The position numbers and the translations under genes are program-made. Positions 3,141 to 33,423 of a stretch of 64,000 nucleotides of DNA are shown piece by piece. The DNA is taken from the IMG/VR virus record IMGVR_UViG_3300032135_000002, one strand, 5' to 3'. Source of the stretch: an uncultured virus (IMG/VR IMGVR_UViG_3300032135_000002) (lineage: Duplodnaviria > Heunggongvirae > Uroviricota > Caudoviricetes). Numbering within the stretch: position 1 is the first letter of the stretch; the number at the start of each line of letters is the position of its first letter. Under the pieces are notes generated by a model. That model ran no database searches and had not been told where the DNA came from. It saw only the letters and a list, made by a program, of their open reading frames with translations.

Positions 3141-4285
3141 TGGTTCAGCCAACCGTCACTGAAGAAGATGTTTTCAATGACGACAAAGATCCCATTGAAG
3201 CTATTTACGAAATTCGTCGAAATTCTAAAGACAGCACTGAAGAAAACATGGAAAGCCTGCAGGAATCCGTGCAGGAAGCCAGTGACAAAAGCGGTGTTGA
3301 AGATGAACTAGCTGACGAAATTCCGGAGCCTGGAGAATCTGAAAAAGCAGAAGAAGGCACAGTAGATAAAGAATCTTCGGATAGTGAAAAAGTTTTCGAT
3401 GACAGTAAAACGAAATCTGATTCTGACGCTGAAGGTGGTGATAAATCTGAAGATGGTGAAGCAGAAGACAAAGCCGTAAGTTCAAAAGTACGAAAGTACA
3501 GTGCTGACGGCAAAGAATACGAGTTCACTGAAGACGAAATTTTTGATCAGTTTGGAACCGTATTTGGCAAAGCGATGAATTACACTCAGAAAATGCAGAA
3601 GATCGCTCCGTATCGGAAAATGATCTCTGCAATGGAAGAGGAAGGCATCACAGAAAGCCAATTCAATACTGCAATTGATGCTCTAAAAGGCAACAAAGAC
3701 GCAATTCAAAGTTTGATGAAGACCCACAATATCGACCCACTGGATATTGACGGGGATTCTGCAACAGAAGACTACAGCCCTACCCAGTACGGAAAATCGG
3801 AATATCAGCAGAGAATTGAAGAAGTAACCAGCAAAATTAGCTCTGATCCTGAGTACGTGACAACTGTAGACGTTATTCAAAATAAGTGGGATTCGGCCTC
3901 TCGAAGTGAGTTCTCGAAAAATCCTGATATGATTTCAGGACTTCATAACGATATTAAGAGCGGCCTTTACGAAAAAGTTATGCCCGTAGCAGCAAAAATG
4001 AAAGTGCTAGATGGAAATTCCAAGTCAGACATTGAATACTACATGCTTGCAGGTCAGCAAGTTAGCCAGGCGGAAAACTCTGCAAAGAGTTCTGTCGATG
4101 AAGCTAACAGTCAGACACAAGAAATGGTGGACAAGTCTGGTCAGGCATCATCAGAAGCTCAAAGAAAACGTGCAGCTGCATCTACTCGGACACGCGCTGA
4201 TAAAAAAGGCGTTACCGATTACCTTGAAGATGACAACGATGAGCATTTCGACGATTGGTACAAAAAACTGATGTCGAAAAACTGA
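3140..4285 (+). CDS. N4 gp57-like protein (putative scaffold)
   Basis: Acidic low-complexity N-terminus, NYTQKMQKIAPYRK motif, immediately upstream of the capsid gene. Confidence 0.7.
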   Translation: MVQPTVTEEDVFNDDKDPIEAIYEIRRNSKDSTEENMESLQESVQEASDKSGVEDELADEIPEPGESEKAEEGTVDKESSDSEKVFDDSKTKSDSDAEGGDKSEDGEAEDKAVSSKVRKYSADGKEYEFTEDEIFDQFGTVFGKAMNYTQKMQKIAPYRKMISAMEEEGITESQFNTAIDALKGNKDAIQSLMKTHNIDPLDIDGDSATEDYSPTQYGKSEYQQRIEEVTSKISSDPEYVTTVDVIQNKWDSASRSEFSKNPDMISGLHNDIKSGLYEKVMPVAAKMKVLDGNSKSDIEYYMLAGQQVSQAENSAKSSVDEANSQTQEMVDKSGQASSEAQRKRAAASTRTRADKKGVTDYLEDDNDEHFDDWYKKLMSKN

Positions 4286-11593: not shown

Positions 11594-11935
11594 ATGTTTG
11601 TAATCAACACTGAAATAGAAGTTAACTGGATACTGCCAGCAACGGTATCCGGTTACCAAAATACAGATTTTGACGTATCCATCAAAAGACCTGATGGCTC
11701 GTCTACGTACCTTGACGGTATTTTGGAGCCTGGTGGTGCAGTAAAGACGGCAGACTTTATAGCTCCTACAGATATCACGACAGGAGCTGCAACGTACCGT
11801 CTAAACCCGGATATGGTAGGAGTTTGGGTTGTTGTACTGACAATGGGAAATAAAGAGTACAACAATATTTTCTATGAGTATTTCCTTAGAGTTAGCGAAC
11901 CTGACACTCACATATACCAACAAGTGACGGTGTAA
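11594..11935 (+). CDS. Small Ig-like virion protein, paralog of the 6268 N-domain
   Basis: Shared pattern W...ATVS...D....P.GS..Y...D...PT....G...Y...P...G.W. Confidence 0.55.
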   Translation: MFVINTEIEVNWILPATVSGYQNTDFDVSIKRPDGSSTYLDGILEPGGAVKTADFIAPTDITTGAATYRLNPDMVGVWVVVLTMGNKEYNNIFYEYFLRVSEPDTHIYQQVTV

Positions 11936-11939
11936 GAAA

Positions 11940-12872
11940 ATGGCAGATATAGAACTAACCAACCTTACAGACAGCACTAACGCTGATAATGGTACAGGTG
12001 TATTTGACAAGCTTATACAGTCAATTGAACAGCATATTGAGTCTCAGTACAAAGCAGGACGTATAACAGGCAATGATTACTGGAGTGTTTATCTGGGGTC
12101 AATGCAGTCTGCTTTGTCAGAATCTGTAAAATTTCTTCTGAGTGAGCAACAGTCTGCAAAACAGGCCGAACTCATTAGTGAGCAGATACTGAGCGAGCAA
12201 AAGAAAAATGAGGCTGGCGGTCTCATTGATCTTGAAAAGAAAAAGAATCAGGAACAGATTGATCTGATTATTGCTCAAACAGCTGCCCAGTACGAAAGTA
12301 TTGATGCTTCGCGTAAAGACACAAACAGAAAAAATCTGCTGAACAGTAAGCAGGTTATAAAAATTGGTAAAGAAAGCGAATTGCTGACTACTCAAAATTC
12401 AGAGCTTCTTTTGAATGGCGTAGTAGAACGGGCATTGAAAGCAGCACAAGAAGTAGCTACTGCCAGTAATGCAATTGACAACACGAACAAAACAAACGCC
12501 GATGTAGCCTTTGTAAACGCTAAAGAATCGGATCAGATTTACGTAACAGCCAATATAAGACCTCTTGAAACTTCCAAACTGGAAGAAGAAATTGATCTTT
12601 TGCAGTCAAGGGATCTTGAGCAGCTTGCTGCTACAGTTCGTATGGATCTGGAATCGGCCAAGAAAGTTTTGTTGATCGAAGCTCAGACACTTGGATTCAA
12701 AGTAAACGGCAAGCAGAATTTGCTCAAGCAGATGTTTGAAGGTTTCGCTATCGAAACTACGACTAACGGTGCAGTCACAGCTCCAGCACCTAGTCTGAAT
12801 AGCAGTGTTTCCTTGGAAATGGTAGCTAACTCAATTTTTGATGACTTGGCACCATCGGCAGGAACTATATGA
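11940..12872 (+). CDS. N4 gp54-like virion protein
   Basis: GTGVFDKL...HIESQYKAGRITGNDY.SVYLGSMQSALSESVKFLL resembles N4 gp54; coiled-coil body. Confidence 0.75.
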   Translation: MADIELTNLTDSTNADNGTGVFDKLIQSIEQHIESQYKAGRITGNDYWSVYLGSMQSALSESVKFLLSEQQSAKQAELISEQILSEQKKNEAGGLIDLEKKKNQEQIDLIIAQTAAQYESIDASRKDTNRKNLLNSKQVIKIGKESELLTTQNSELLLNGVVERALKAAQEVATASNAIDNTNKTNADVAFVNAKESDQIYVTANIRPLETSKLEEEIDLLQSRDLEQLAATVRMDLESAKKVLLIEAQTLGFKVNGKQNLLKQMFEGFAIETTTNGAVTAPAPSLNSSVSLEMVANSIFDDLAPSAGTI

Positions 12873-13135
12873 AGACAAAAAAAGAAGTTCTCGACTTAAT
12901 TAACGAAGCAATCGAGGAAGAAAAAGGCCGTTCAGTTGGAATCGACGACATGTTTATGGATTCTGAACTGGACAGTCTGGGGGTTGTGTTAACGTTAGTA
13001 GCGTTAGAAGAAGAATTTGGTGACATGGAAGGATTTACTGAAGGTGAAGAACTACACGGAATAGAAGAACTTACTGTCAGGGACCTGGTGAAACAATGCA
13101 TATTAGCGATTTCAAGTACTTCAAAGGAACCGTAA
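12869..13135 (+). CDS. Acyl carrier protein-like
   Basis: 88 aa, very acidic. LDSLG phosphopantetheine-site motif (Ser codon 12974-12976), helix II LVALEEEFG, C-terminal TVRDLV. Confidence 0.85.
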   Translation: MKTKKEVLDLINEAIEEEKGRSVGIDDMFMDSELDSLGVVLTLVALEEEFGDMEGFTEGEELHGIEELTVRDLVKQCILAISSTSKEP

Positions 13136-13926
13136 AAGAAAACGGCTACGTAGCAATACCAGACCTGAAAAGGGACCGGCCCAGTGTCGGTCAGTTTATT
13201 AAGATGGCTGATTTAGACATCGTTTTAACCAGACCTACAGCCTTCTTGTACGTTGATGGCTTCCTGGTGTCTCAGTCAGACAACGGTATGCGAGAGCCTG
13301 TAAAAGTAAGCAAGGCTGCCATACTGAAAAGCGGTACCAGTTACATTGCCCATGAGTGGGTTCACACCTTCAAGAACAAAGAACACCTCAAGCACGTTAA
13401 TATGATAACGAGTACCTGCGCTGCTGGAGTACAAGCAATCTGGGAGGCTAGAGCACTGCTTGAAAGCGGTATGGTAGAAGAGGTGATAGTGATAGGTGCT
13501 GAAAGAACTACTGACGCTACTCTTGCCTTGTTCAGTGAGCTTAGAATACCAATCACCTGCGGAGATGGGTTTGCTTACATTCGGCTTTGTAAAGGCTATG
13601 GTATCCATAACCCCGTTTGGAAGTACACATACCAACAAAACCCTTTCCATTTCCCGAAGGAAGTCTTGGACACCTTAATACCTGAGTACCCAGTAGATTA
13701 CGTAAAACTGCACGGTACCGGCACACCGTCCAACACAGAGGGCGAATCAGGTCTGGCTGCCATAGCTACACCTATAACCTATAAGCAGGACATAGGACAC
13801 ACCCAGGGCGTTAGCGCACTCCTGGAAACGTGTATGGTTTTAGACGATCCTGAAATTGTAGGAAAAATACTTGTTACGGCAAATGGTCTTGGAGGATTTT
13901 ACGGTTCTTTCTTGGTGGTGAAATAA
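13096..13926 (+). CDS. Minimal beta-ketoacyl-ACP synthase (FabF/FabB-like thiolase fold)
   Basis: STCAAGVQAI (catalytic Cys), VIVIGAE, HGTGTPSN (His), KQDIGHTQG (Lys, His), C-terminal GLGG. Only 276 aa. Confidence 0.85.
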   Translation: MHISDFKYFKGTVKENGYVAIPDLKRDRPSVGQFIKMADLDIVLTRPTAFLYVDGFLVSQSDNGMREPVKVSKAAILKSGTSYIAHEWVHTFKNKEHLKHVNMITSTCAAGVQAIWEARALLESGMVEEVIVIGAERTTDATLALFSELRIPITCGDGFAYIRLCKGYGIHNPVWKYTYQQNPFHFPKEVLDTLIPEYPVDYVKLHGTGTPSNTEGESGLAAIATPITYKQDIGHTQGVSALLETCMVLDDPEIVGKILVTANGLGGFYGSFLVVK

Positions 13927-14414
13927 TGTTTACCACACCGGCAATAATGGGACCTGACGTAGAATTTAGAAATTGCGTTGAAGGTGACGTAGCAAGGCAT
14001 TTTCAAAAAATAAAAGAGTACATTGAACCAGAGTTTCAAGATGACCATATTAGTAAAATGAAAGATTGTGTAGAGGATGGAACAGCGTTTGTCACCAAAG
14101 GTGATGAGTGTTTTATGTACTACAAAAAAACCAAAGAAGCTTTTGCAGATGCTGTTTCAATCTACGGTAAAAACTATCCGTTGATGATGATGGCAATGAT
14201 TGCTGGAATACCAAAACATGTTCCAGAGGATAAGAAAGACACAATTTTTTTGTACCTTACTCTGCACATAGGCAAGGATATAAAAGAGTACAAAGGAATG
14301 CTTTCAAAGACAGCAATATACCGTCACAGGACTAATGGTGACAGACTACTTATACGTACTGACGATCTCATAAGAAAATTTGAAAAGCTAAGGCTTAGGA
14401 GATTGGAAAAGTGA
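13926..14414 (+). CDS. Hypothetical protein, possibly a GNAT-like acyltransferase
   Basis: 162 aa. N-terminal VEFRNCVEGDVARHF resembles GNAT beta1-alpha1. Coupled to the ketosynthase gene by TAATG. The fold call is weak. Confidence 0.35.
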   Translation: MFTTPAIMGPDVEFRNCVEGDVARHFQKIKEYIEPEFQDDHISKMKDCVEDGTAFVTKGDECFMYYKKTKEAFADAVSIYGKNYPLMMMAMIAGIPKHVPEDKKDTIFLYLTLHIGKDIKEYKGMLSKTAIYRHRTNGDRLLIRTDDLIRKFEKLRLRRLEK

Positions 14415-17182
14415 GCGCAGTAATTGACGCTATAGAAAGTGTACTAGGAGCAATCGGTGACGCAATTGAGTCTTTCGTGTCTTTTGTCTGGAACGAAATT
14501 GTACTTAGAGAATTGGGAGATGTTCTTGGGCTTTTTGGTATTGAGGATGAGACTGTAGTTACTGTATCAAAAATATCTACAAAAATGTTTGACGAAAATA
14601 CTGAAGACGTAGTAAAAGCTGCAAAAACAAGAGCAGTAATGCGGTGGCTTAAAAGTGATATTTCTTTCTGGAAGTTCGTGTATTTTGAAATGAATTTAAC
14701 CAGAGGAAAGATAAATGGGTATTACAATTTCGCAGATAAAGGTAGATACATACACGGTTTGCCTAGTATGTCTGTGCAGGGTGAAAATAAAGATGAAAGT
14801 GCTATTAAAGATGCAATAGACGTTGTTTACTCTACCAATTCTGTACTTACATACAGTTCTAACAGCTACCCAACTTCTGAAGAACACTTCAAATTCCAGC
14901 TTCAAGGCGGTACCACAAACTATAAGCCAGGTCTTAATCAGCTGACTTACGATAATGAGTGGGGAAAAACATTTAGCAACTGGGCTTGGGGCAGTGTTAC
15001 GTACCTGAGTGGATCTAATAACTATGAAATATTAATAACCAGGGTAGCTGAAAGAGCTTCGTTTTGGATAGAAGGACCATCCGAAGTAACAGAAAGCAGT
15101 ACTGTTAATCTAATTGTAAGATCTAACAGACCAGTTCCTGTAGGGGAAAGTGTAACAGTAAATTTCACCTATTCTGGAACAGTAGATTCAAGCCAGTACA
15201 CAGCACCGGCATCGGCTGTAATGGCTGGTGGTTCAAGCTCTGTATCAATAGCAGTATCAATAACAGAAGACGCAATAAGCGAGTCTTTGGGTAATATAGT
15301 AACAACCGTAGATTCGATAACAAATACGAACGGAGCTTTTGAAGATTTAGTAATCACATTAGACTCAGTAGATACTTCTGTTTACGATAACGATTCTTTG
15401 GTTTTGACTCTGGATTCTATCTACGTAAATGAGTCAGATACTACGGTGACGGTACCAATAAAGCTGACCCAGGATGTTTCCGGAGGGTTTACAGTAGATT
15501 ATACACTGCCTGAAGGAACAGCAATTGCAGGTGTTGACTACGACGGTACTGGAGGTACGTTAACTTTTGCAGGAACTGCAGGAGAAGTTCAAAACATAGT
15601 CGTACCAATGACAGCCGATGTATCAACAGGATCGAGAGAAGACTTCACAGTTGCTTTGCAAAACTGCTCAGATGTCAGCGTAGATACTTCAAGAGTGGCA
15701 ACTGTAACTATTATAGATTCTGACCCTGGTGGACCAGCTCCTGATACATCAGTTTATGTAGCAACATTTATAGAGCCACAGTTTGTGGACGAAAGAGCAA
15801 TGGTGTGTAAATACTACACCAGTGGTCAAAGTTCTACCGATTGGTACTACTGGATCTACTATTACAGCTCAAACCTGTATCCAGACATTGATCCTTTAAA
15901 TACTGTTATTAGTGAACTTGAAATGCTCCCTGTTGGCATTATAAGAAAAGACAAAGTAAACGTAGATTTTGACAAAGATGGAGAAGAATATAAGACAACA
16001 AAAAACCTTTTGAGATTGGTAGATCTAAACGTAGACGATCTTATAGCGGGTGTAGAAGCTAACCCAGATAAAGATACGGTAGATGACGCTTACGTAAATT
16101 TTGCAGTTAGCCCAAGTGATACAGGGCCAGAAGTTGCAAAACTTCTTTATCTAACGTTTTATGAAATTATAGAAGTTAGAGGTATTACCTCTAATTCTGG
16201 AAAGTACACTTCTGCCTTCAGTGAGCAAGATGTTAACAACGGAAATGTTTGGACAAATCACAGTTACGTTAAAGACATATCTGGGTCTATTGGCACCGTA
16301 GGTATTCATACACACGAAATTGCGTGGACAAGTTACGAAAACAAGCTAACTTTAAGATTTCAAAAAACGGCTATCAGCTACGATGAAATCGTAATAGAAA
16401 ACATGAACAGCATGTCGAGTATAAAGTACGACGGTTACCATAAAGCAGCGTTTAACACACTTAAAGACAGTTCATTCACAATTCCACTGTCCTGGTACGT
16501 TTATGATCAGTTAACTAATGAAGAACTGATGAAGGTTTACCAGAAAATATTTCGTGTTGATTTTTATTCGATCGAAGTAACTCACTTAGCTTGGTACGAA
16601 ACTGCGGCATTTTTCAGCTTTATAAAATTTGCTTTGATAATAGTGTCTATTGTACTTACCGCTATTACGTTCGGAGCAGCAAGTGGTTTTTACGCAGGTG
16701 TTTGGGCAGTAATTCAGCAGGTTGTTATAAGTTATGTTGTAATGGAAATTGTAGTAGAGATTGCAGCGGCTACCGGAAGTGCTGCTTTAGCAGCTGCTAT
16801 AGGACTTATAGCTGCATTTATAATGAGAGACTTTTCAGGTCTTGAGCAAGTTGGGTTCTTTACCGCTGAGGGTGTGACATCGGCTATAACTGCATACTCA
16901 GCTGGATTGGGCACAGTGTACAAAGTAGAACTTGAAGAGATGACGGCAGAAACCGAAAAACTTATGGAGGAAATGAAGGAAAAAGAAGATTACTATGAGA
17001 ATAATTCCCCAGCAAGCAATTCTATATTAGACGCATCTTTTTACGCATCATTAAGTTCTACAGAAACCATGCTGTATCAATCCAGAGACGCACAGTACGA
17101 CTATAACGCTCAATTGACAGGTGCTTATGATAGACTTGTTAAAAATTACCACAGTGCACTTTTAGACTTGGGCATACATTAA
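14411..17182 (+). CDS. N4 gp53-like tail/membrane protein with two Calx-beta domains
   Basis: Synteny with N4; Calx-beta motif TVDYTLPEGTAIAGVDY.G.GGTLTF; hydrophobic C-terminal segments; GTG start. Confidence 0.7.
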   Translation: MSAVIDAIESVLGAIGDAIESFVSFVWNEIVLRELGDVLGLFGIEDETVVTVSKISTKMFDENTEDVVKAAKTRAVMRWLKSDISFWKFVYFEMNLTRGKINGYYNFADKGRYIHGLPSMSVQGENKDESAIKDAIDVVYSTNSVLTYSSNSYPTSEEHFKFQLQGGTTNYKPGLNQLTYDNEWGKTFSNWAWGSVTYLSGSNNYEILITRVAERASFWIEGPSEVTESSTVNLIVRSNRPVPVGESVTVNFTYSGTVDSSQYTAPASAVMAGGSSSVSIAVSITEDAISESLGNIVTTVDSITNTNGAFEDLVITLDSVDTSVYDNDSLVLTLDSIYVNESDTTVTVPIKLTQDVSGGFTVDYTLPEGTAIAGVDYDGTGGTLTFAGTAGEVQNIVVPMTADVSTGSREDFTVALQNCSDVSVDTSRVATVTIIDSDPGGPAPDTSVYVATFIEPQFVDERAMVCKYYTSGQSSTDWYYWIYYYSSNLYPDIDPLNTVISELEMLPVGIIRKDKVNVDFDKDGEEYKTTKNLLRLVDLNVDDLIAGVEANPDKDTVDDAYVNFAVSPSDTGPEVAKLLYLTFYEIIEVRGITSNSGKYTSAFSEQDVNNGNVWTNHSYVKDISGSIGTVGIHTHEIAWTSYENKLTLRFQKTAISYDEIVIENMNSMSSIKYDGYHKAAFNTLKDSSFTIPLSWYVYDQLTNEELMKVYQKIFRVDFYSIEVTHLAWYETAAFFSFIKFALIIVSIVLTAITFGAASGFYAGVWAVIQQVVISYVVMEIVVEIAAATGSAALAAAIGLIAAFIMRDFSGLEQVGFFTAEGVTSAITAYSAGLGTVYKVELEEMTAETEKLMEEMKEKEDYYENNSPASNSILDASFYASLSSTETMLYQSRDAQYDYNAQLTGAYDRLVKNYHSALLDLGIH

Positions 17183-19692: not shown

Positions 19693-22656
19693 ATGGCGAC
19701 GTTAGACGAGATAATGGCACAGAGGTCATCAATGAGCTTGGCTGCTCCTGTTCTTGCTCCTGTACCTAAAACAAAGCTTCAAGAAAAGAAAGACAGGCTT
19801 TTTGGAGCACCAGAAGTACCTACTATTTCAGAAGATTCAGGTAACGGCCTTGAATCTTTGATGAATGGTGGCAATTCAAACAGAACACCAGGCTTGGGTG
19901 ACCGATTTGAGTCTAGCCTTTATAAGTCTGGTGGCAGTCTTGCCGACATGGGTAAGAGCATTTCCAATTCTATGTTTGATACCCAGTTTGACGATTCAGT
20001 AGAAACAGGCTGGAGCCGCCAATCTGACCCTGAGAACCGTCAAGCATCGGCAGCTGATGAAATGGCAGGGGTAAGTTTTGATCAGCGTCAGGCTGTTAAC
20101 CAGGATCTGCAAGGTGTTATGAACACCTATGTAGAAGACGGTTTACTTCCAGCGTTTGGTAAAGCTATACCTGAAGCATTTGGTGTTATAGCGGATTCAG
20201 GCTCATCTCTTGTAGAAATGGCTGCAGGTGCACTTGCGGCTCCTATTGGTGGTGCTGGTGTAGCACTGTTGGCCAAAAAAGCCAAAAACACTTTTGACCT
20301 TATTGGTAAAATTGATGATTCTTACGACAAGGCAAAAGAATCCATCAAAGCGGTAAAATTTGCAAAAGATTTGGCAGGTACCGTAGCAAAAAAATCTACA
20401 CAGGCCAGTGTTTTAACAGCCGACCTGGTTCAACAAACCAAAGTTGAGTACGAGCAAGAAACCGGCGAAAAGATGAGCCCTCAAAGGCTTGCCGGAACAA
20501 CTGTGGCTATTTTGGCCACGTCTGCTATGCAGATTCAAAGTGTTAAAATGCTCTATTTGCCAGGATCAAAAAGTTTTGTTGGTAATACTGTAAAACAAAA
20601 ATTCACCAACGAAATGAAACAGATGTCCAAGTACCTGGATCAAGGTGCTGTTAAATCTATCGCTAAAAGAATTGGTGGTGGTTTAGGAGCAGTATTTGTA
20701 GCAGGTGGTGCAGAAGCTGTTCAGGAGTACTCTCAAACCTGGGCTCAGATTCTAAGTGTGCACATGGACCCAGAAGAAGCTGGTGGGCTTTTTGCTTCAG
20801 CGTATAAAGAGCTTAATGACCAAGACAATCAGAATGAGGCTGACGTAGCCGCTATTCTCGGCGCAGTAGCTGGTGGTGGTATCAAATCTACTCTATCAGC
20901 GCCTGGATTAGCGGTTGGTGCAGTAGCTGACGTAGCTGTAGCAACGGGTGACAAGATCGTTAAAAGCTCTTACAACGCTGCCCGTGACAGGCTAAACCCT
21001 GCAGACCAGGAAGCTGACATTGAAGAGCGTAAAAACCTACGTGCAGCAGCTCAAGAGATTCAAACAGAATCTGCAAGAAAAGTATCTGTAGTAGCTGACT
21101 CAGGAAATTTTCAAAACGTTACTGACGAAGCTGTTAAAGCTGAAATGGTTAGAGTAGCTGCAGGTAGAGATTTGTCAGATCCGAAAGTATTTGAGTCTGT
21201 GTCTAACAAACTTGTACGTTCTTATAAAAAAGACAGTGTTAACGCCCTTACTGAAGAAAAGCTTCAAAACGGTTTTATAGCAGGAAGGAAAGTTGTAAAG
21301 CGTGTAGGTGATGACTTTGCAAAAATCCTGGATCTTGCTCCAGAAGAAATTGAGGCTGTAAAAAATTACGTAGTCAGCAAAGTAGAATCTACCAAAGAGT
21401 TTGGTCAAGCCTTTGCAGATGACATTAAGAATTTTAAGTCTTCTGCAACGTTAGGCGTAGCCGAAGCAGCTGTAGATTTCATATCGGAATCCGTAGAGGA
21501 AAACACCAAAAAAGGTGTTAAGTACGCAAACAGCAAAGAGTCTGTGCAGAAACTTAAAGGTCGTTTGGAATCACTCAACTCGGTCAGTGCAGCCAGGTCT
21601 CTGGCAACATCGTTAGAAACTAACTCTCCTGACAACAGCAAAAATGCTGTCAGAGAAATTAGAAGCTGGGCTGATCAGAAAGAAAAAGATCAAAAGCGGG
21701 TAAACCTCAAAAACGATTCTGCCCTAACTTACGATAATCTTGGTGACAGCGTAAAAGAAGCCAGCCAAGCAGGGGCTACTGTAACCAACCCAAGAGCCTT
21801 GAGCATAGAACTGTCCAATGCCAGAAAAGGCAGCATAGAGGACATGGAAACTCTGCAGTCCCTGGAAAACGCTCTTGAAAACTACAAGAAAACGGATTTT
21901 AGTAAAACGGGTGAAGCTACCCTGAGTGAAACTGCCGTTAAAAACATCGCCAGAAAGCTTTCCAAGGCACGGACAGAGCTTGAATCCAGACCCGATGCGT
22001 CTGTAACAAGTAAGGTAAAAGCCGCTGCTAGTACAGTTACAGGAGCCGCTAGCAAGGCAACTGCCTGGGCTAAGCCAGCTACTGACAAACTGAAAAGTAT
22101 GGGCATTACCACAGTAGATAAGCTGATTGATCGTGTCACCAACGAAGACGTTTTTGTATCAGAAGACACTGATGTACAAAGAGCTGCAATATCAGGAATT
22201 AATAAAGTTATAAAAAATATTCTTGAAAGCGAAGAAGGTAAAAGTGGCGATAACGTAGATCAAGAAGCTTTGCTCCAATCAAAAACAGCCATAATAGTTG
22301 GAGAAGATGGAGTTTTTGCAAAAAAGACTATAAAAGGACTTTCAAAGGTTTTCAAAACAAGTAACCCAGATTACTTGATAGCTGTCATGGAAAGAATATT
22401 CCCAGCTGTAAGAGAACCTTCTTTAGAAAAGATTCTACGTGACCGTATGTCAGAAGTGCTTAAAGATTCTGCTGAGCCTAACACTGAGCCAACACGGCAA
22501 AGAAAGAAGAGTGCTAACGAATCCGACACCAACAATCAAGATGATTCTGATGTTGTTATAGAAGAAGACGGTGCTGTTTTTAGATCTGCTCCTAACATGT
22601 CTAAAGTTAATGCTAAGATGGTAGAAATTCTGGGCAACCACATTTGTAAGGTCTAA
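19693..22656 (+). CDS. Ejection protein, likely the N-terminal part of a split virion RNA polymerase
   Basis: 987 aa, Ala/Gly-rich hydrophobic segments, GGAEAVQEYSQ motif. Size matches the roughly 1000-aa N-domain of N4 vRNAP. Single Cys at residue 985. Confidence 0.65.
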   Translation: MATLDEIMAQRSSMSLAAPVLAPVPKTKLQEKKDRLFGAPEVPTISEDSGNGLESLMNGGNSNRTPGLGDRFESSLYKSGGSLADMGKSISNSMFDTQFDDSVETGWSRQSDPENRQASAADEMAGVSFDQRQAVNQDLQGVMNTYVEDGLLPAFGKAIPEAFGVIADSGSSLVEMAAGALAAPIGGAGVALLAKKAKNTFDLIGKIDDSYDKAKESIKAVKFAKDLAGTVAKKSTQASVLTADLVQQTKVEYEQETGEKMSPQRLAGTTVAILATSAMQIQSVKMLYLPGSKSFVGNTVKQKFTNEMKQMSKYLDQGAVKSIAKRIGGGLGAVFVAGGAEAVQEYSQTWAQILSVHMDPEEAGGLFASAYKELNDQDNQNEADVAAILGAVAGGGIKSTLSAPGLAVGAVADVAVATGDKIVKSSYNAARDRLNPADQEADIEERKNLRAAAQEIQTESARKVSVVADSGNFQNVTDEAVKAEMVRVAAGRDLSDPKVFESVSNKLVRSYKKDSVNALTEEKLQNGFIAGRKVVKRVGDDFAKILDLAPEEIEAVKNYVVSKVESTKEFGQAFADDIKNFKSSATLGVAEAAVDFISESVEENTKKGVKYANSKESVQKLKGRLESLNSVSAARSLATSLETNSPDNSKNAVREIRSWADQKEKDQKRVNLKNDSALTYDNLGDSVKEASQAGATVTNPRALSIELSNARKGSIEDMETLQSLENALENYKKTDFSKTGEATLSETAVKNIARKLSKARTELESRPDASVTSKVKAAASTVTGAASKATAWAKPATDKLKSMGITTVDKLIDRVTNEDVFVSEDTDVQRAAISGINKVIKNILESEEGKSGDNVDQEALLQSKTAIIVGEDGVFAKKTIKGLSKVFKTSNPDYLIAVMERIFPAVREPSLEKILRDRMSEVLKDSAEPNTEPTRQRKKSANESDTNNQDDSDVVIEEDGAVFRSAPNMSKVNAKMVEILGNHICKV

Positions 22657-22658
22657 AA

Positions 22659-25600
22659 ATGGCAAATTGCATAAGCATTGAAGATTATCTTGATACGTTG
22701 AGAGAGATTGCCCAAGAGGTAGAAATAAACCAACTTGGTGACCAAGATACTCGTGTAAACGTTTGGAACATCTCTGATACTGACGTAGCTAATATGTTAG
22801 AAAACTACCGAGTGCCTCAGTCAGTAAGTTCCCAATCTGATCGTTTAACCAGAAAATTGGAAGGCGCATTAGCCGGTATTTCACCAACTCACAAGCAAAA
22901 AGTAAAAACTCTTGTTGATAGGCTTAAAAGTAAAAGTTCTTTGGGAGAAAGCAGCGATAAATCTGCACGCTCTCAAATGGTCGCTTTGAAAGAAATTATT
23001 TCTTCTATTGCAGGTGAAGTAAATAAAGCAAGCAACATGAGAGTGCCGCTTACTGTAATAAGTCCTGGCAGTGTGCCTAACATTCCTATGGCAAGATTGG
23101 CTGCTATGATCGGTCGTAAAGTCCTGTACCAAAATGGGTACAGGTCTACCGGCTTGGGTGAAGAAAACAGCGCAGCTAAAGCTGAGCACATGTATTACCT
23201 GGTGGGCGAAAGGATTCTTGAATCTTTACAAGATGGTGGTTTTGTAAAAATTAACGAAGCTAACAGCGGTCAATCTACGCTTATTGATTACATTGATGGT
23301 GATAAAAAAAGAATGCCTCGTGGTCCTGATGCCCACACCACTAATATGAAGTCTGTAACGTTAATTCCAAAATCTCTTGACCTTTCTACAAAAGAAGGCA
23401 GTGCTGATTTAGATACGATTCTAGGCAAAACATCCGAACAATCTGATAGCGTATTTGGATCTTACCTAAAAATGATTGATGCAGTGTCTTATGTCACTGT
23501 TCCGGAAACAATCATTTTTCCAAAAACCGGATTCATGAGTTACGACCCTGACACATTCACTAAAAAAAGTTCGTACAAGGGCAATAAAGAATTATTGAAA
23601 TCGGTTAGAGAAATAGAAAGCAAACCGCTGTACATGAACAGTGACGTACATAGCTTGTTTGCCAACATTGCAAAAGAAACAGAGAATATTAGTAAAAGTG
23701 CCTCATCTTGGATAAACAATAATTTAGACGCTCTGTCACTAAGCAAGCTGTTTAACATGGAACAGAGTAATGATATTGAGTCAGATAAAGCCAGTAATAT
23801 GGGCAGAAATCTTTCTAAGTCTACGCCTATAGATGACGTAGTTGAGTACTTTTCAAAGTTTAAAGATAACCCTGCACTGTTCTTCAAAATGTTCCTGGGA
23901 CGCAATGCCAGGGCTTACATGGAGAACTCAGTACTTAACCCGCAGACTTCCAAAAGCATGAGATTTGCTATGGAAGTTGAACCCTATGCTATGGAAGTTG
24001 GATCAGACGTTTATAAGTACTACGTAGATAAGGTAGCCAGATCTACTCTGCCTAAAGGCAAAGACGGTACCGTACCTGCTCAAACACTGCTTAAAGAAGA
24101 CATGAGCAGTGAGCCTATGGGTGCTGAAATTCAAAAAGCTTTGAACGCTTACAACAAATACAGTGAAGCAAGAAGTGCTAACAGTCAGCTAACCGCTTTG
24201 AGGGCAATGAGCAATTCCGGTCTAAAATTTGAAAACTTTTCTGATCTTTTATCTTCTGTAAAAGCGATTAAAGGCATTCGTGAAAGTCTTGATTCCAAGC
24301 GGATAACGTCTACCTACATGGTATCCAGTGACGCTACCGGTTCGGGTGGTTTGTTAACACTGTTGCAAGCTATTGGTTCTACACAGGAAGAAGACATTAC
24401 CAAAGTCTTGAAAAGTTTGGGTGTGTTTAAAAGTAACGAAGAACAGGATCTCGCAGAAGTTAAAGACATATACGGCATTCTTACAAACGCTTTACAGCCG
24501 TTTTTAGATGAAGAACCGGATAGTGATGGTATCTACGAGCTTTCATTAGATCGGAAGCTTAATGAAGAAACCGTTAGGTCTGTTTTAACATCGGTCAAAG
24601 ACGATCTATTTGACGGGGATTTTCGAGAACTCTCCAAGTCACCAACGATGACATTCATCTACGACCAGTCTGAAGATGGGGCCGTAGAATCTATGGCAGA
24701 AACTTTTACTGAAAAACTTTTAGGTAAGCTCAGAAACAACAATGCTGTTAGTCCGGAGCTAATTAAACTTCTTAATGATCTTTTACCTACAAAGGTAACT
24801 ACTCAAAAAGATGTCAATGATTTGAAAAAAACCGATAAAAAGTTAAAAGCGTCACTGGAACAAGGATTTATAAATTCCGGAGTTGGTAATTTTTTGTACG
24901 ATGCTTTGGGTACGACTGTTAGAAGAAAGTATTTGGACAACCACAAATCTATGGCTAAAAGGGTATTTAACCTTATTAGCCAAAACGTAGGTGATCCACA
25001 GTTCAAAGTGATGCCTGCAGCCTGGGTAGTTGAACGGGCTGAGTCAGGTGGAAGCATTGAACCTACACTAGCAGAGTTGAGGGAATACGGCGTACCGTTG
25101 ACCAAACTTTATGATGTTGCTCGTGAGGTTGACGGTGGTGACGTTGTTTTGACCCGTGAAGACCGTCTTGCAGAAACTGTAATGAACACTTCGATGATCC
25201 ACACAGCCGATACTGCAGCTATGTTTGGAAGCCTTAAGGGGCTACCTACGAAGCACAATACCGGAGTCATAACGGTACACGATGCGTACTTCTCCAACGC
25301 CCATTTGGTCATGGAGAACGACTCAAAATACATAGCAGAGACTCTGAAAGTTGCTCAGCATTTTGATATCCAAGAGCAGGTTATGTTAGCTATTAAAGCT
25401 TTTTCAGGTAAAAAAACTGACGAAGATAAGTCTTTTGATGGTATACTTGAGTTTACCAGAAAGCGTAAAGCTACCAAACAACAGGCTCTAAAGGACAACT
25501 TTGATGCAGAAACGAATAGTGTTATTGGCGACGGAAATGGCTATCGAAATCTTGAAGTCTCAGGTGTCAAAGCAAAAGAGGCAACACCCAGAACTACAAA

Positions 25601-28600
25601 GCAAAAAATCGAAGGAACGCAAAGCACGAATAGCAGCCCGAAAGTTAGTCCAAAAAGACAGGTAAGTAACCGTGATGCTGCTACGCAGAGAGCTTTGGAA
25701 AAGCTTTCTGCTAAGTCACCTATCATTGCGGGATTCCTGAAAAGCACTAACAAGTCGGCAGTAGTTAAAGGCACAGTAGATTCTTTCCAGTCAGATACCG
25801 ACACAATCACCATTTCTGACACTGCAACCATAGCTGACATTGAACACGAAATTGTTCACAGCTACACCGTTGGCATGATCGAAAAAACGTTTGAAGCGGA
25901 TAAAAATTCTGAGTTTGTTGAACAGGTTGAACTGATAACAGGCAAAGGTAGCTTCAATCAAAATCTTCGTGACATGAAGTACATCCAGAAAGCGTTAGCT
26001 AAAATTGATGCAAGCAAGCTTTCCGGAGAAACCAAAAACCGGATTGTTTACGCCAAAAACCAGGCTAATGAAAAAACAGCTTTGGGTGAGTTTGTCTCCA
26101 TAATGAGCACTGAACCTTCAGTAGCTAAAGAGGTTTATAAGCAATTTGGATCTGGCAACACCTTAAAAGGAATTATTGGCCGAGTTGTTAAGAGCATCCA
26201 AAGGATTTTAAAAAGTCCTACAGCTGCGGATCTAAGCATGGACACAGTAGATGCTGAGATTCTGTACAGTTCTATAAACGGTCTCATCGAAGGTGGTAAG
26301 TCGATGAGGGAAAATTCTTACGAGCAAAATTTGCAACTACAAAAGGAATTTGGTGAAGACCTATATTCTGGGTCTCGGGCAGGTGACTACGTAAAAAAGT
26401 CTCGTGATTACTTCGAGCTTTTAAACAGTTCAATGGCCAGGTCTATAAATGATCCAGCGGTACGAAAAATAGGATCTTGGACAGCATCTCTGGATGGGAT
26501 TGTGCGTGACAAGTTTCCTGTCTACAGTCAGGCAGCTGACTACATGAAAGGCATCTACGATGGATCTGAGGCGCTTCAGAGCTTGGTGCACAAAATCACC
26601 AACAGCAACATCAACAACGAAACCAAAAACGAAGTTCTGTCTACGTTTTCGAGGTTGAGGGCTGAGCGTAACGACCTGGTAAGCAGAGAGCTTCGTAAGT
26701 TTAAAAAACTTACTTTTAACATGACCGAAGGCCAACTCAGAAGCTATCGTGATTTCACTCAAAAAATGGCCATACAGGATTACTTTCTGCTTGCTGAGAC
26801 CGTTACCGATATCGATGCCAAAGTAGATGAGCTAAAAGCATCTTTAAAGTCAGACGCAACTAACAAGTTAGATACCATTGTAAAAATGAACGTTGATGGT
26901 GAGATTACCAGCAAGACTTACTACAACGTCAAACAGATCATGGGTTCAGCAGGTGATAACCAAAACAACGCCAGGGCTTACGTAGCTTTGCGATCAATTC
27001 AGGAATTGGGACAAGATCGGTTCACTGAATTTTTGGGCAACACTGAGCTTTTGACGCTTATCAAAGACACTGTATTGGCTAACGAGTCTCTGACTTTTGA
27101 AGGTGGAATTAATACTTCCAAACTTCGAGACAACGGCCTGGCTGAAAATTTTGAAACTCCCATCGTGAAACGGGCAGTTCATCCTAATGATATGCGGTTT
27201 ATGGCCAAGTACGAAAAGGATGGCTGGAAGCGTTTAAAAACCTCAGGTGATGAAAACCAGCCAGTCATATTGTACAAGTCTGAAATTGATCAGACGTATC
27301 AAGAAGGTGTGTTTACAGACATTCGTACACAGACTGCAGACATACCTGTTACAGAGGCTTTCAAGTCGTTTAACAACGTGGTTAAGACAGCTGATGGAAG
27401 CTACGTCATGGTCCTGAGTGAAGACCAGAGACATAAGCTAGGGGCCAGTAAGGACCCAAGCCAGAGCCTGGTCAGAACAATGGCACATAATATGACCATG
27501 AAAGAGTCAGAAATTATCAGGAATAAGTTACTGGAGAAAGAGACCTATTGGGATTTGAAATCTAAGGATACCGACAGCTTGAAAAGGTTGGTTAAAGATC
27601 CCAGTCGAGATAACCCTTGGTTCTTGGGATCAACTAACGATTTTGATATGTCTAAGCACCCAGAGTTGCTGAAGCACTACACACCCGTTACAAAAAGTCT
27701 TTCTGACCACAATCGGTTTGATGAAAAAATTCAGTACGTCAGAAAAGACATTGGCTACTGGTTGATCGGTGCCTCAGAACGGTCTGTGGTACGTGATCCT
27801 AAACTACAGTGGGCGTTGAGAATTACCAAAAACATCGTATCCGGAATGAAGATAGGCTTGATTGCGCTGAACCCTGTCAAGATTCTTAACGACAACGTAT
27901 CGAACATCACGTACCTGGGCATCAGAGGCGTAGATCCGGTGTTCCTGCAAAGGCAGTACCGAAAAATCAGCACTGAGTTTAACGAGTACCACGGTATCCG
28001 TAACAGGTACATGGATCTGAAAGTACGAAGCTATTCAAATCCTGGTGACTATAAAGATCAGATGGATAAAATTCAGAAAGAACTTAAAAACCATCCCGCA
28101 AACGGGTTTATCGAAAGAGGGTTTTTAAATTCACTCGGATCAGAATTGATCATGAACACAGACGATCCCTCATCGGGATTCAAAAGCGATCTTGATGCTA
28201 TTCTAAAAAAGGTATTTCAAGACAATGAAGGTAAAAACAACTCAGTTGGAAGACTTCTCATTAAGAGTGCTAAGTGGAACGTAGGTTTAGAAGAACTTCT
28301 TGAAACTGTTAGTCCTGTGTTTGGACAGGTAGGGTCTACAAAAGAAGTTGAAAAATCGATCAATGAAATAGCGGATCGTTGGAAAGACATTAAAACCAAG
28401 GAAGACGCAGTAGCGTACATGCACCAGTACCTAAACAGTCCGGACAGTGAGTTTGTTAAGCTGGGCAGTCACATGACGGATCTCAGTGACGTGATGGCTA
28501 AAGAAACGCTGTACCGTCATCTGATGGGCAATGGCATGAGCGCTAAAAAAGCAGAGTTGGAGGTTATTGATTCTTTTCCTGACTACAAAGAGGCAATGCC

Positions 28601-28865
28601 GGTTAAAGTTCGTCAGTTAAGCGATGTGGGCATTCTTATGTTTCCTTCGTATTGGCTGAGGATTCAGAAAACGATTTACCGGATGATCAAAGACCGTCCG
28701 GTAAGTTTCGGGATTGAAGAAGCTATAAACGAGTTGGTTGGTTTGGAAGGTTCTTCAATAGAAGACGCGAATATCATTTCCAAATTTAATTCTCATTTGG
28801 GTATATTCCACAACCCCTGGGCAGATCCGGGAGTCGGCAACATAGTACCGACTCACGTATTCTAA
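22659..28865 (+). CDS. Virion-encapsidated single-subunit RNA polymerase (catalytic and C-terminal part)
   Basis: Motif A SDATGSG, motif B RELSKSPTMTFIY, motif C VHDAY; HEIVH zincin motif; last gene of the virion operon as in N4. Confidence 0.88.
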   Translation: MANCISIEDYLDTLREIAQEVEINQLGDQDTRVNVWNISDTDVANMLENYRVPQSVSSQSDRLTRKLEGALAGISPTHKQKVKTLVDRLKSKSSLGESSDKSARSQMVALKEIISSIAGEVNKASNMRVPLTVISPGSVPNIPMARLAAMIGRKVLYQNGYRSTGLGEENSAAKAEHMYYLVGERILESLQDGGFVKINEANSGQSTLIDYIDGDKKRMPRGPDAHTTNMKSVTLIPKSLDLSTKEGSADLDTILGKTSEQSDSVFGSYLKMIDAVSYVTVPETIIFPKTGFMSYDPDTFTKKSSYKGNKELLKSVREIESKPLYMNSDVHSLFANIAKETENISKSASSWINNNLDALSLSKLFNMEQSNDIESDKASNMGRNLSKSTPIDDVVEYFSKFKDNPALFFKMFLGRNARAYMENSVLNPQTSKSMRFAMEVEPYAMEVGSDVYKYYVDKVARSTLPKGKDGTVPAQTLLKEDMSSEPMGAEIQKALNAYNKYSEARSANSQLTALRAMSNSGLKFENFSDLLSSVKAIKGIRESLDSKRITSTYMVSSDATGSGGLLTLLQAIGSTQEEDITKVLKSLGVFKSNEEQDLAEVKDIYGILTNALQPFLDEEPDSDGIYELSLDRKLNEETVRSVLTSVKDDLFDGDFRELSKSPTMTFIYDQSEDGAVESMAETFTEKLLGKLRNNNAVSPELIKLLNDLLPTKVTTQKDVNDLKKTDKKLKASLEQGFINSGVGNFLYDALGTTVRRKYLDNHKSMAKRVFNLISQNVGDPQFKVMPAAWVVERAESGGSIEPTLAELREYGVPLTKLYDVAREVDGGDVVLTREDRLAETVMNTSMIHTADTAAMFGSLKGLPTKHNTGVITVHDAYFSNAHLVMENDSKYIAETLKVAQHFDIQEQVMLAIKAFSGKKTDEDKSFDGILEFTRKRKATKQQALKDNFDAETNSVIGDGNGYRNLEVSGVKAKEATPRTTKQKIEGTQSTNSSPKVSPKRQVSNRDAATQRALEKLSAKSPIIAGFLKSTNKSAVVKGTVDSFQSDTDTITISDTATIADIEHEIVHSYTVGMIEKTFEADKNSEFVEQVELITGKGSFNQNLRDMKYIQKALAKIDASKLSGETKNRIVYAKNQANEKTALGEFVSIMSTEPSVAKEVYKQFGSGNTLKGIIGRVVKSIQRILKSPTAADLSMDTVDAEILYSSINGLIEGGKSMRENSYEQNLQLQKEFGEDLYSGSRAGDYVKKSRDYFELLNSSMARSINDPAVRKIGSWTASLDGIVRDKFPVYSQAADYMKGIYDGSEALQSLVHKITNSNINNETKNEVLSTFSRLRAERNDLVSRELRKFKKLTFNMTEGQLRSYRDFTQKMAIQDYFLLAETVTDIDAKVDELKASLKSDATNKLDTIVKMNVDGEITSKTYYNVKQIMGSAGDNQNNARAYVALRSIQELGQDRFTEFLGNTELLTLIKDTVLANESLTFEGGINTSKLRDNGLAENFETPIVKRAVHPNDMRFMAKYEKDGWKRLKTSGDENQPVILYKSEIDQTYQEGVFTDIRTQTADIPVTEAFKSFNNVVKTADGSYVMVLSEDQRHKLGASKDPSQSLVRTMAHNMTMKESEIIRNKLLEKETYWDLKSKDTDSLKRLVKDPSRDNPWFLGSTNDFDMSKHPELLKHYTPVTKSLSDHNRFDEKIQYVRKDIGYWLIGASERSVVRDPKLQWALRITKNIVSGMKIGLIALNPVKILNDNVSNITYLGIRGVDPVFLQRQYRKISTEFNEYHGIRNRYMDLKVRSYSNPGDYKDQMDKIQKELKNHPANGFIERGFLNSLGSELIMNTDDPSSGFKSDLDAILKKVFQDNEGKNNSVGRLLIKSAKWNVGLEELLETVSPVFGQVGSTKEVEKSINEIADRWKDIKTKEDAVAYMHQYLNSPDSEFVKLGSHMTDLSDVMAKETLYRHLMGNGMSAKKAELEVIDSFPDYKEAMPVKVRQLSDVGILMFPSYWLRIQKTIYRMIKDRPVSFGIEEAINELVGLEGSSIEDANIISKFNSHLGIFHNPWADPGVGNIVPTHVF

Positions 28866-31393: not shown

Positions 31394-31651
31394 TTATCTG
31401 TTACATTTTTTATGCGATAGCTTTAGTAGAAATAGGTACCCAGGCTTATCTTCTTTTTTAGAAAAATAGTGTTCTATGGTAGCCATTTCTTCAACATCAT
31501 TTACAGGCTCTCCCATAGTTGGAAAGAGCATAGGTTTTTCACACCAGCAACATTTTTCACCGTAGAGTGTGCGAAGGATATTACGAAAACGATCTCTTCG
31601 TGACTTGCTGATATAAAGACCGTTATTTTTACGTCTTTCAGTTTTTTTCAT
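31394..31651 (-). CDS. Small HNH endonuclease
   Basis: CCWC, ATIEH, SHKKCN. Confidence 0.7.
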   Translation of the reverse strand: MKKTERRKNNGLYISKSRRDRFRNILRTLYGEKCCWCEKPMLFPTMGEPVNDVEEMATIEHYFSKKEDKPGYLFLLKLSHKKCNR

Positions 31652-33423
31652 AAGATTGCCAAAACCTCTTCTATTTGTTGGATAGAAGCATTGTTTGGAA
31701 TTTTATGAAGATCCGCCCAATTTAGTCCAATTTCACCTTCAGCTTCGTTGTGAATTTCCTCATCTTGCAAATACTGAACAGTCATCACTTCGATAAGGTT
31801 TTCATTAACCCATTTTATTATTTCAGGATCACGGTAGGTTTGCGTGTAGATACTGTCGTAGATTGTAGATTGTACCTGAACATACTTTTCCAGATTTTCC
31901 TGCTCTATGCGGTAGTTCAGTTCGTTCACAGCGATGAGTGTTAGGATGCTCCAAAACTGTACGGTTGCGTTGTGCAAGGTTCTGATATCGTTATGAGCGT
32001 TGTCTGTATAAAGACGACAACCAAGACCCAGGTGGATGTAACCGTTACTGGCAGCCGTTGGAAGAACATAGTTATCACGGTAATCAGTAATTCCTGGATA
32101 CAGAACATTGTGGTACCTATCGAAAATCTCCTGAGTTATAACACCTCCTTTGTCTACATCTGGAAATCCACCATAAGCAAGTTTGAATGTTGGAGCTTTA
32201 GATTTTTGACGAATATCTTTTATAACAGAGTTTCCTTCGTCATTTTTTTGCATAAAGGCTTTAACAAAATCAACGTTATTGTTAAATTTTCCGATAGTTT
32301 TTTCTATCTCTTCTGAATAGTATCCACACGCATTTAGAGAATGGCCATCAAGACCTTCTTTAAATACGTTGCACTTATTCACATCTCCAGAAAGATTGGA
32401 TATTACACGGTCTTCCAGTGCAGATAGATCTGCTGTGTAAATTACAAAGTCTTTCTTTGCTGTAAAGCACCGTTTCAGTGGCTTTGCGTAGATTGATTTA
32501 CTGCTGGGAGCATTAAGCAGATTTGGAGAATTTGATGTATTTCTAAACGATTTGGCACCAAACAGTTTTATTTTACCGTGAAGAACTTTATCAATAGTGA
32601 ATGTATCAAACGCTTTTATAAAATTGCTTTTTATGATGAAACTAAATGAGTTGTCGATCATAGCGTCAAGCATTTCAATTAAAACTTCATCTTTTGAATC
32701 TTTACGAAGTTCTTCAATTTGATCACGACCCCATGAAGGTTCTCCTGTGTCTTTGGAGTAAGACCTTGCAGGAATCTTCAACATCTGAAAAATCTCACAA
32801 GTTTGCTTTGAGCTGTTAGGGTTGAAGGCTTCCAGACTAACTTTCTGCTTCTTTTTCTCGTAGCGTGGCCTGTTCCAAAGCTCAAGTTTGTACTCTGCCA
32901 GGGAGCGCATAGCTTTCACTGCAGTAGTGCAATTTGCGCTTATCCGCTTATCTATGACACTGGACAAAAAAGGATCATTCAAAAAGACGTTGTATTCCTT
33001 TACGTCTTTAACAGACCACTTATTACGGACATCTTTATCACGGCCTATGGCCAGTAGATGCGTGTTGACCAACCAGGTACGGTGAGTCATGTCTGTTTCT
33101 TTGAATGGCTTTAAATAATGATCAAGGGTGCGAACAGATTTGGTAGCTTCTTCTTCATGCTCTCTCTGAGCCTTTGGCCTACGCATGGTCTCCTGGTACT
33201 TAATAACGTAAGGGTGTTTGCCTAAACGTTCGTATACAGTCTCTTGAACCTCATCAATGAGCGTTCTGAGATTTTCAACAGCTTCTGATTCAATCAATAG
33301 ACCTGTATCCACCATTTTTATCATGTCAGGGATAAAGTGGCTGGCAAAGTTATCATAGAAATAACTGGGTCCAGGATCATGGTCACAAGGAAAAGGAACA
33401 GGAAGTCTTTCAAAAGGGCGCAT
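31648..33423 (-). CDS. Family A DNA polymerase, polymerase domain
   Basis: SNSPNLLN, motif A ADLSALEDR, motif B RQKSKAPTFKLAYG (Phe at the 762-equivalent position), motif C TIYDS. Confidence 0.9.
   Translation of the reverse strand: MRPFERLPVPFPCDHDPGPSYFYDNFASHFIPDMIKMVDTGLLIESEAVENLRTLIDEVQETVYERLGKHPYVIKYQETMRRPKAQREHEEEATKSVRTLDHYLKPFKETDMTHRTWLVNTHLLAIGRDKDVRNKWSVKDVKEYNVFLNDPFLSSVIDKRISANCTTAVKAMRSLAEYKLELWNRPRYEKKKQKVSLEAFNPNSSKQTCEIFQMLKIPARSYSKDTGEPSWGRDQIEELRKDSKDEVLIEMLDAMIDNSFSFIIKSNFIKAFDTFTIDKVLHGKIKLFGAKSFRNTSNSPNLLNAPSSKSIYAKPLKRCFTAKKDFVIYTADLSALEDRVISNLSGDVNKCNVFKEGLDGHSLNACGYYSEEIEKTIGKFNNNVDFVKAFMQKNDEGNSVIKDIRQKSKAPTFKLAYGGFPDVDKGGVITQEIFDRYHNVLYPGITDYRDNYVLPTAASNGYIHLGLGCRLYTDNAHNDIRTLHNATVQFWSILTLIAVNELNYRIEQENLEKYVQVQSTIYDSIYTQTYRDPEIIKWVNENLIEVMTVQYLQDEEIHNEAEGEIGLNWADLHKIPNNASIQQIEEVLAIL

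Follow-up and report, generated by a model that had tools for sequence, protein, structure and literature searches.

Between the tail-tube and tail-plug genes of an uncultured virus of the Caudoviricetes (IMG/VR record IMGVR_UViG_3300032135_000002), positions 12,869 to 14,414 of the 64,000-nucleotide stretch that we analysed (hereafter the window) hold three chained genes, for an acyl carrier protein (ACP), a minimal ketosynthase (KS) and a small protein with a predicted GNAT fold. Our favoured reading, to which we assign a probability of roughly 45%, is that this cassette is a candidate acyl-ACP-dependent acyl-transfer module that would lipidate the product of the next gene, the tail plug, on its N-terminal segment. 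The reading draws on sequence comparison and on structural models. An earlier note on this DNA, made from the sequence alone, had identified an ACP, a KS retaining its Cys-His-His triad and a possible GNAT, and had proposed that they acylate a virion protein. Its observations are confirmed, all three identities included, while its interpretation is partly supported.

A three-gene cassette between the tail-tube and tail-plug genes

The cassette and its neighbours are as follows (aa, amino acids).

11940..12872 (+): gp54-like tail-tube protein, 310 aa, directly 5' of the cassette; phrog_2050 'virion structural protein', E 3.1e-29
12869..13135 (+): ACP, 88 aa; candidate phosphopantetheine serine S36
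13096..13926 (+): minimal KAS I/II-type KS (KAS, ketoacyl-ACP synthase), 276 aa; C108, H206, K230, H235
13926..14414 (+): GNAT-fold protein, 162 aa; a new sequence family with near-invariant M45, A54, Y65 and H114
14411..17182 (+): gp53-like tail-plug protein, 923 aa, GTG start; phrog_2220, E 3.5e-33
Within the plug: N-terminal motif, residues ~1-32; Calx-beta domain, 333-438 (Pfam E 1.3e-13); hydrophobic block, 729-811 (by hydropathy)

Coordinates and junctions are as the earlier note gave them. The gp54-like and ACP genes share an ATGA overlap, the ACP and KS genes overlap by 40 nt, the KS gene meets the third open reading frame (ORF) at TAATG, and the third ORF overlaps the gp53-like gene at GTGA, such that the cassette ORFs are translationally chained to the tail-plug gene. 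A scan for promoters and terminators gave no signal, with 27 promoter and 12 terminator sites where shuffled sequence led us to expect 36.6 and 12.6.

The window covers most of the genome of a marine N4-like (Schitoviridae-type) phage, and it encodes an SU10-type portal (Pfam E 1.4e-134). By tblastn the gp54-like protein matches 411 phage records, N4 gp54 among them, and the gp53-like gene occupies the position that gp53 has in N4 and 12 further cultured Schitoviridae. The N4 tail tube is built of 12 copies of gp54 and closed by a single copy of gp53, the tail plug, in which residues 29-56 and 670-716 make up a hydrophobic knot that acts as the cork (PMC13434306). The downstream protein, previously described as a membrane-associated tail protein, is indeed a tail protein, more exactly a homologue of this plug.

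Conservation and predicted folds of the cassette proteins

Judged by its sequence, the 88-aa ORF is a carrier protein with an intact candidate phosphopantetheine serine. The D-S-[L/F] motif is invariant, D35 and S36 being present in 26/26 aligned homologues from related loci, and in a profile alignment the serine of the family falls on the D-S-L-G site of NodF and other solved carriers. NodF is the best match of the family profile among solved carrier proteins (E 2.8e-5); type II ACPs and D-alanyl carrier proteins come next. Members of the family are small (75-98 aa) and acidic, with an isoelectric point (pI) of 4.05-4.47 in 26/26 and of 4.15 for the window ACP. Five of the 26 match Pfam PP-binding at an E value of at most 0.1; PHROGs held no match for the ACP.

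The KS family comprises 217 proteins found at an E value of at most 1e-3 among 1556 candidates, all of them metagenomic or from viral contigs, which reach 74.6 kb. Those matches listed with at least 93% query coverage are 263-289 aa long, so we regard the short length of the window KS as real. Residues C108, H206, K230, H235 and N263 are invariant in 39/39 aligned members, with the Lys (K230) placed five residues before the second His (H235) of the Cys-His-His triad, and profile alignment puts C108, H206, K230 and H235 on the Cys, H-G-T-G-T and K-x-x-x-G-H motifs of solved KAS II (best E 4e-5). The AlphaFold2 (AF2) model of the KS has a mean predicted local distance difference test score (pLDDT) of 93.5. 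Foldseek matches it with probability 1.0 to ketosynthases of fatty-acid synthase (FAS), FabF/FabB and type II polyketide synthase (PKS), while VIA-align gives Z 24.6-26.4 at a root-mean-square deviation of 2.4-4.0 Å over 257-272 of the 276 residues. The alignment spans chains of ~400 residues end to end, from residue ~4 to ~420, and takes in both halves of the thiolase fold. On this model the KS is a complete thiolase-fold core minus about 125-140 peripheral residues, and we predict it to be a trimmed yet catalytically complete decarboxylating ketosynthase. A pattern scan of 185,579 prokaryotic species genomes (one each) returned one weak partial match, and tblastn of 50,697 GenBank phage records likewise returned one partial match; the family appears to be phage-specific, found in viral and metagenomic sequence only.

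The third ORF, for which the earlier note had suggested a GNAT, has the GNAT fold in its AF2 model (pLDDT 95.4, from a 110-sequence alignment). Every Foldseek match listed belongs to the GNAT superfamily (best E 1.4e-3, probability 0.89-1.00, template modelling (TM) score 0.4-0.54). VIA-align finds 48 chains with Z of at least 8 (top Z 9.7, 124-149 of 162 residues aligned), and nearly all of its best 50 matches are GNAT superfamily members, many of them protein N-terminal acetyltransferases. No TAAT (toxin-activating acyltransferase) chain is among those 50, and the HlyC family is not among the 25 Pfam families listed of the 29 matched by the 110 aligned members. A profile search recovers 210 representatives at an E value of at most 1e-3, all of about 160 aa. 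The 110 members have no consistent Pfam match (Acetyltransf_1 in 1/110, E 0.056), the family profile has no sequence match in the PDB (best E 0.43, unrelated), and PHROGs held no match for this protein either. Conservation is concentrated in Y65 (99%), H114 (93%) and H25 (74%), together with the near-invariant M45 and A54, and the family is mostly basic (median pI 8.5). GNAT enzymes bind the pyrophosphate of coenzyme A (CoA) through a Q/R-x-x-G-x-G/A motif between strand 4 and helix 3. This CoA-type glycine motif is not conserved in the phage family, where from strand 4 (residues 73-80) to helix 3 (85-97) only G76 reaches 60%. Predicting a complex of the GNAT with plug residues 1-70 gave a score of 0.00 against a mark of 0.32, which counts neither way, and the best hit to the window GNAT in the ESM atlas (score 0.87) came without a model and is uninformative.

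Linkage and co-divergence of cassette and tail plug

Homologous cassettes were examined in 32 viral loci anchored on the KS, a set that includes the window's own contig and some near-duplicates. An ACP gene lies upstream in 30/30 loci having upstream sequence, and the GNAT profile matches in 23 of the 30 having downstream sequence. Linkage to structural genes, on which the earlier note had made its interpretation depend, was found: gp54-like and gp53-like genes flank the homologous cassettes. When loci were instead anchored on the plug (n=25), the ACP-KS-GNAT trio was present in 17/20 having upstream sequence, and two loci, L069 and L073, had none of the trio. A Mantel test over 14 loci gave r 0.91 for GNAT and gp53 and r 0.87 for KS and gp53 (range 0.87-0.91 among KS, GNAT and plug; p at most 0.001). 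These correlated sequence distances indicate that cassette and plug have been inherited together over deep divergence.

Viral contigs whose KS is as little as 29% identical show the gene order again. Four such loci (L025, L027, L029 and L030, KS identity 29-42%) have an ACP, a KS, a small ORF and then an M-G protein with hydrophobic segments, in which no gp53 homology is detectable; the small ORF of L027 is a predicted GNAT according to its atlas model (TM 0.73-0.78). Phage MW202545, a 57-kb phage outside the N4 group, has two tail genes followed by a D-S-L ORF, a 314-aa KS, a 146-aa ORF and a 639-aa protein. Its KS passes both Pfam cut-offs and matches the hidden Markov model (HMM) of the KS family at 1.2e-20, and its 639-aa protein resembles the plug HMM in residues 1-42 only.

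Two cultured Alteromonas phages, PT11-V19 and R22Y, carry an ACP and a GNAT at the same junction and no KS, and by tblastn they are the only GenBank phages with the window GNAT. For this reason we regard the ACP and GNAT as the core of the cassette and the KS as an add-on, although the earlier note had counted the KS as part of the module. N4 was said to have no such genes at its gp54/gp53 junction, and this proved correct: the cassette genes are absent from 13 cultured Schitoviridae (N4 among the comparators) and from phage AD45-P2.

Locus L066 (positions 3371-4001) has a 76-aa ACP-like ORF (HMM E 6.9e-6) lacking the D-S serine, followed by a 139-aa ORF. Neither KS nor GNAT was detected there, the GNAT HMM missing the 139-aa ORF. 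From its sequence, L066 looks like a decayed cassette beside a plug whose N-terminal motif is intact.

The N-terminal segment of the tail plug

We described the start of the plug by a 32-residue profile trained on 15 cassette-plus plugs. Among 12 held-out cassette-plus proteins, 9 score more than 5 bits, including 4 of the 5 from non-N4 lineages, and 10 beat at least 299 of 300 shuffles of their own sequence; none of 15 cassette-minus plugs exceeds 5 bits (maximum 1.6). The motif appears to travel with the cassette even where homology does not extend to the remainder of the protein.

The downstream protein begins M-G or M-S in 22/22 carriers (M-S in 10). The earlier suggestion that its N-terminus is involved stands insofar as the motif co-occurs with the cassette. 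It does not stand for the N-terminal Gly itself, which we rejected as a marker of cassette carriers since it is family-wide in gp53 homologues and not diagnostic.

A separate observation concerns the cassette-less gp53 homologues (L035-L048, for example L035:6718), 8/13 of which begin M-G-L-F-S followed by lysines. This start resembles the eukaryotic N-myristoylation consensus, and we know of no bacterial enzyme that uses an N-terminus of this type.

A proposed mechanism

As the earlier note had stated for reductase, dehydratase and phosphopantetheinyl transferase (PPTase), a Pfam scan (E at most 1e-3) of the 72 other window ORFs found none of these, nor FabD or a ligase. Since the window ORFs scanned encode neither a PPTase nor a malonyl transferase, ligase, reductase or dehydratase, host enzymes would have to prime the ACP and to load it at least in part. 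A PPTase match is also absent from G001, the nearest record, which is a fragment and so says little.

In the mechanism that we propose, the cassette would be expressed late, together with the tail genes, and its target would be a component of the tail tip. A host PPTase, for which the earlier note had named AcpS, would prime the phage ACP and host FabD would malonylate it. Cys108 of the KS would accept an acyl chain drawn from the pool of the host, and the KS would condense it with malonyl-ACP, a single condensation that would leave a 3-oxoacyl chain on the phage carrier; with loading in this one step, the cassette could do without a reductase or dehydratase. Where the KS is missing, host fatty-acid synthesis would have to load the ACP directly. 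The basic GNAT would then dock the acidic acyl-ACP and move the chain to an amine of the plug N-terminal segment. The simplest acceptor would be the alpha-amine of Gly2 or Ser2 after removal of Met; a lysine, as in HlyC, is the alternative. A lipidated, amphipathic plug N-terminus may help to engage, or insert into, the host outer membrane at the tail opening.

The fullest form of this proposal is that we are dealing with the first virus-encoded protein-lipidation machinery, in which an ACP (with or without a minimal KS) and a dedicated GNAT would fatty-acylate the N-terminus of the single-copy plug and so give the tail a lipid tip with which to engage the host outer membrane. This we consider doubtful.

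Evidence against the proposal, and alternative explanations

Several of our results weigh against lipidation of the plug by this cassette. The window proteins fall under the Pfam cut-offs for their families, the ACP for PP-binding (PF00550; 18.9 against 20.8 bits) and the KS for Ketoacyl-synt_C (16.4 against 20.8), with no match to the N-domain. A GNAT fold by itself shows no activity, donor or substrate. Homology between the GNAT family and the small ORFs of the distant loci is not demonstrated (hhalign probability 2.3%), and neither is homology to the 146-aa protein of MW202545 (0.15-0.21%). As for the plug, the motif test is confounded by relatedness in the N4-like cases, and two loci, L015 and L030, carry the cassette without the N-terminal motif. 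The plug of L066 has the highest motif score of all (35 bits) despite an ACP-like ORF without its serine, so that the motif, as read from this sequence, can persist without a working carrier. Finally, cassette-less Schitoviridae gp53 homologues begin M-G in 12/13 cases (11 at the annotated start, 1 at an internal M-G).

There are four further explanations for the cassette. The GNAT might acylate a non-protein amine (an amino acid, S-adenosylmethionine, a sugar amine of lipopolysaccharide or peptidoglycan, or a lipid head group) with the chain borne by the ACP, with or without the KS, giving a product with a role in lysis, entry or signalling. LuxI, the N-acyl amino acid synthases and NodF/NodE/NodA set precedents. 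Some GNAT-like enzymes, LuxI and FeeM among them, do acylate small molecules from acyl-ACP, and NodF/NodE/NodA is a trio of ACP, KS and N-acyltransferase that leaves the other steps to host FAS; NodF is also the solved carrier nearest to the phage ACP. A product of this kind does not account for a cassette fixed between tail tube and plug, coupled to the plug in translation and diverging with it, nor for a plug motif that accompanies the cassette in unrelated lineages, and the Pfam scan of the 72 other window ORFs revealed no export, tailoring or release gene. We therefore consider small-molecule or envelope acylation unlikely. It is less probable still that the ACP and KS are auxiliary metabolic genes that boost or redirect host fatty-acid synthesis during infection. 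That is the printed reading of R22Y gp30 (PMC11705849), and ACP and KS are core FAS components. However, only a single type of FAS enzyme is present and it is dispensable, the conserved partner of the ACP being the GNAT, which is not an FAS enzyme; the position in the tail operon is fixed across deep divergence, and the 13 sampled cultured Schitoviridae do without the cassette. Moreover, the KS family is absent from cellular genomes but for the one weak partial match in 185,579 species, and so the KS is not a recently captured host gene.

A non-catalytic role, in which the ACP-like and GNAT-like proteins keep ancestral folds but serve as chaperones of tail assembly or as internal virion proteins, would suit L066, where an ACP-like ORF without its serine sits beside a plug with an intact motif, and it would suit N4, in which the genes of this region encode virion or ejected proteins (PMC13434306). 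The invariance of the ACP D-S pair (26/26) and of the KS Cys, His, His and Lys (39/39) argues for selection on chemistry, and the high conservation of GNAT Y65 and H114 is likewise unfavourable to such a role, to which we give a slim chance. Polyketide-style initiation strikes us as a slimmer one. Here the GNAT would decarboxylate malonyl-ACP to acetyl-ACP, as in CurA or GphF, and the KS would make acetoacetyl-ACP, with no protein acylated. GNAT, ACP and KS are the parts of loading-plus-first-module sets, and the GNAT-like decarboxylase of GphF is among the structural matches of the phage GNAT (6mfc, Z 8.0). That score is no better than those of dozens of ordinary acetyltransferases in the same comparison, and the decarboxylase of MadA is not its GNAT domain (PMC8666670). 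The window ORFs scanned include no downstream processing or release enzyme, phages with ACP and GNAT and no KS would obtain acetyl-ACP only, and the link to the tail plug would be left unexplained.

Comparison with known acylation systems

Lipidation of the plug would have its closest counterparts in three known systems. The gene for the activator of an RTX toxin adjoins the gene for its target. These activators, HlyC, CyaC and ApxIC, are small enzymes that resemble GNATs in fold but not in sequence and lack the CoA-binding elements, and they pass a chain from acyl-ACP to a membrane-active protein (PMC8339906), as we predict for the phage GNAT. In contrast to the phage cassette, they use the ACP of the host, without a dedicated ACP or KS, and they target internal lysines of a secreted toxin, where the phage context is a tail. 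The NodF/NodE/NodA system of rhizobia is alike in having a dedicated ACP and a dedicated KAS II-type KS that borrow the other FAS enzymes of the host, together with a small N-acyltransferase that acylates an amine from the ACP, and NodF is the best solved match of the phage carrier profile. It differs in that NodA is not a GNAT, that the acceptor is a chito-oligosaccharide, that NodE has ~400 aa and that the system is cellular. The phage proteins do not appear to belong to the HlyC-type or the NodF/NodE/NodA families.

N-myristoyltransferase (NMT) is a GNAT-fold enzyme that acylates an N-terminal Gly after removal of Met, and the myristoylated capsid peptides of picornaviruses (VP4) and reoviruses (mu1) engage the target membrane. 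A comparable start, M-G or M-S, is seen in the plugs of all 22 carriers. NMT itself is a host enzyme of ~400 aa with two tandem GNAT domains, a myristoyl-CoA donor and a strict need for N-terminal Gly, whereas the virus encodes one GNAT domain of 162 aa along with a carrier of its own, and 10/22 of the plugs have Ser at position 2. The KS, for its part, resembles FabF/FabB and type II PKS ketosynthases in its predicted thiolase-fold core and in the retained Cys-His-His and Lys, and differs from them in length (276 against 390-421 aa) and in sequence (13-21% identity).

Searches of the literature turned up neither the cassette nor any acylated ejection protein of a phage, and neither 'acyl' nor 'myristoyl' occurs in the main text of the N4 structural study (PMC13434306). 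Phage ACPs have been called auxiliary metabolic genes, both in R22Y (gp30) and in Rhodobacteraceae prophages. R22Y gp30 belongs to the window ACP family (L034, E 4e-27), and the R22Y paper gives it this label with respect to host fatty-acid metabolism (PMC11705849). The word 'acetyltransferase' does not occur in the main text of that paper, and none of six passages from it ties the ACP to the neighbouring gene or to the tail-tube/tail-plug junction. As far as these sources go, the R22Y ACP is the sole part of the cassette found in print.

Structural work has only lately begun to resolve how short-tailed phages get through the outer membrane. Lipidation of the plug, if true, would add covalent lipid attachment to the phage entry toolkit. 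It would also bring three new enzyme families, namely a 276-aa minimal KS, a GNAT that lacks the CoA motif and probably takes its chain from acyl-ACP, and a phage ACP; the label 'auxiliary metabolic gene' published for such ACPs would need correcting; and the lipid-tipped tail would be a case of convergence with non-enveloped eukaryotic viruses and their NMT-dependent myristoylated penetration peptides. It is directly testable, as two cultured Alteromonas phages carry the ACP and GNAT core.

Other features of the window and its relatives

DNA near-identical to window positions 11900-15000 is present, in whole or in part, in 20 public DNA runs from 16 studies dated 2011-2024, labelled brine, aquatic or marine, 13 of which may be the source sample of the stretch; no RNA run is listed as containing it. 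In Klebsiella phage KpCHEMY26, which lacks the ACP-KS-GNAT cassette, the protein at the gp51 position (L048:8611-10035) is labelled 'acyl-CoA reductase (LuxC domain)' by its depositors. This is a label only, lipid-related and placed inside the ejection cassette.

At the position of the virion RNA polymerase (vRNAP), window 19693-28865 (+) encodes ORFs of 987 and 2068 aa, neither with a Pfam match. N4 has a single vRNAP of ~3500 aa at this position, and the two ORFs may be a split or shortened vRNAP. The vRNAP of R22Y has 2,083 aa (PMC11705849). The family-A DNA polymerase also appears split (31648-35196, -): an AP2-domain ORF (33410-34138) separates the polymerase ORF (31648-33423) from a 3'-5' exonuclease ORF (34119-34781), on the far side of which lies a GIY-YIG SegE-like ORF (34774-35196). 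An AAA_5 ATPase at 38242-39006 (-) is like the 'CobS' auxiliary metabolic gene reported for R22Y (PMC11705849), and a dCMP deaminase is encoded at 49910-50374 (-). A 242-aa protein at 58168-58896 (+) has a Tad2-like C-terminal domain (Thoeris anti-defence 2; Pfam E 4.8e-21).

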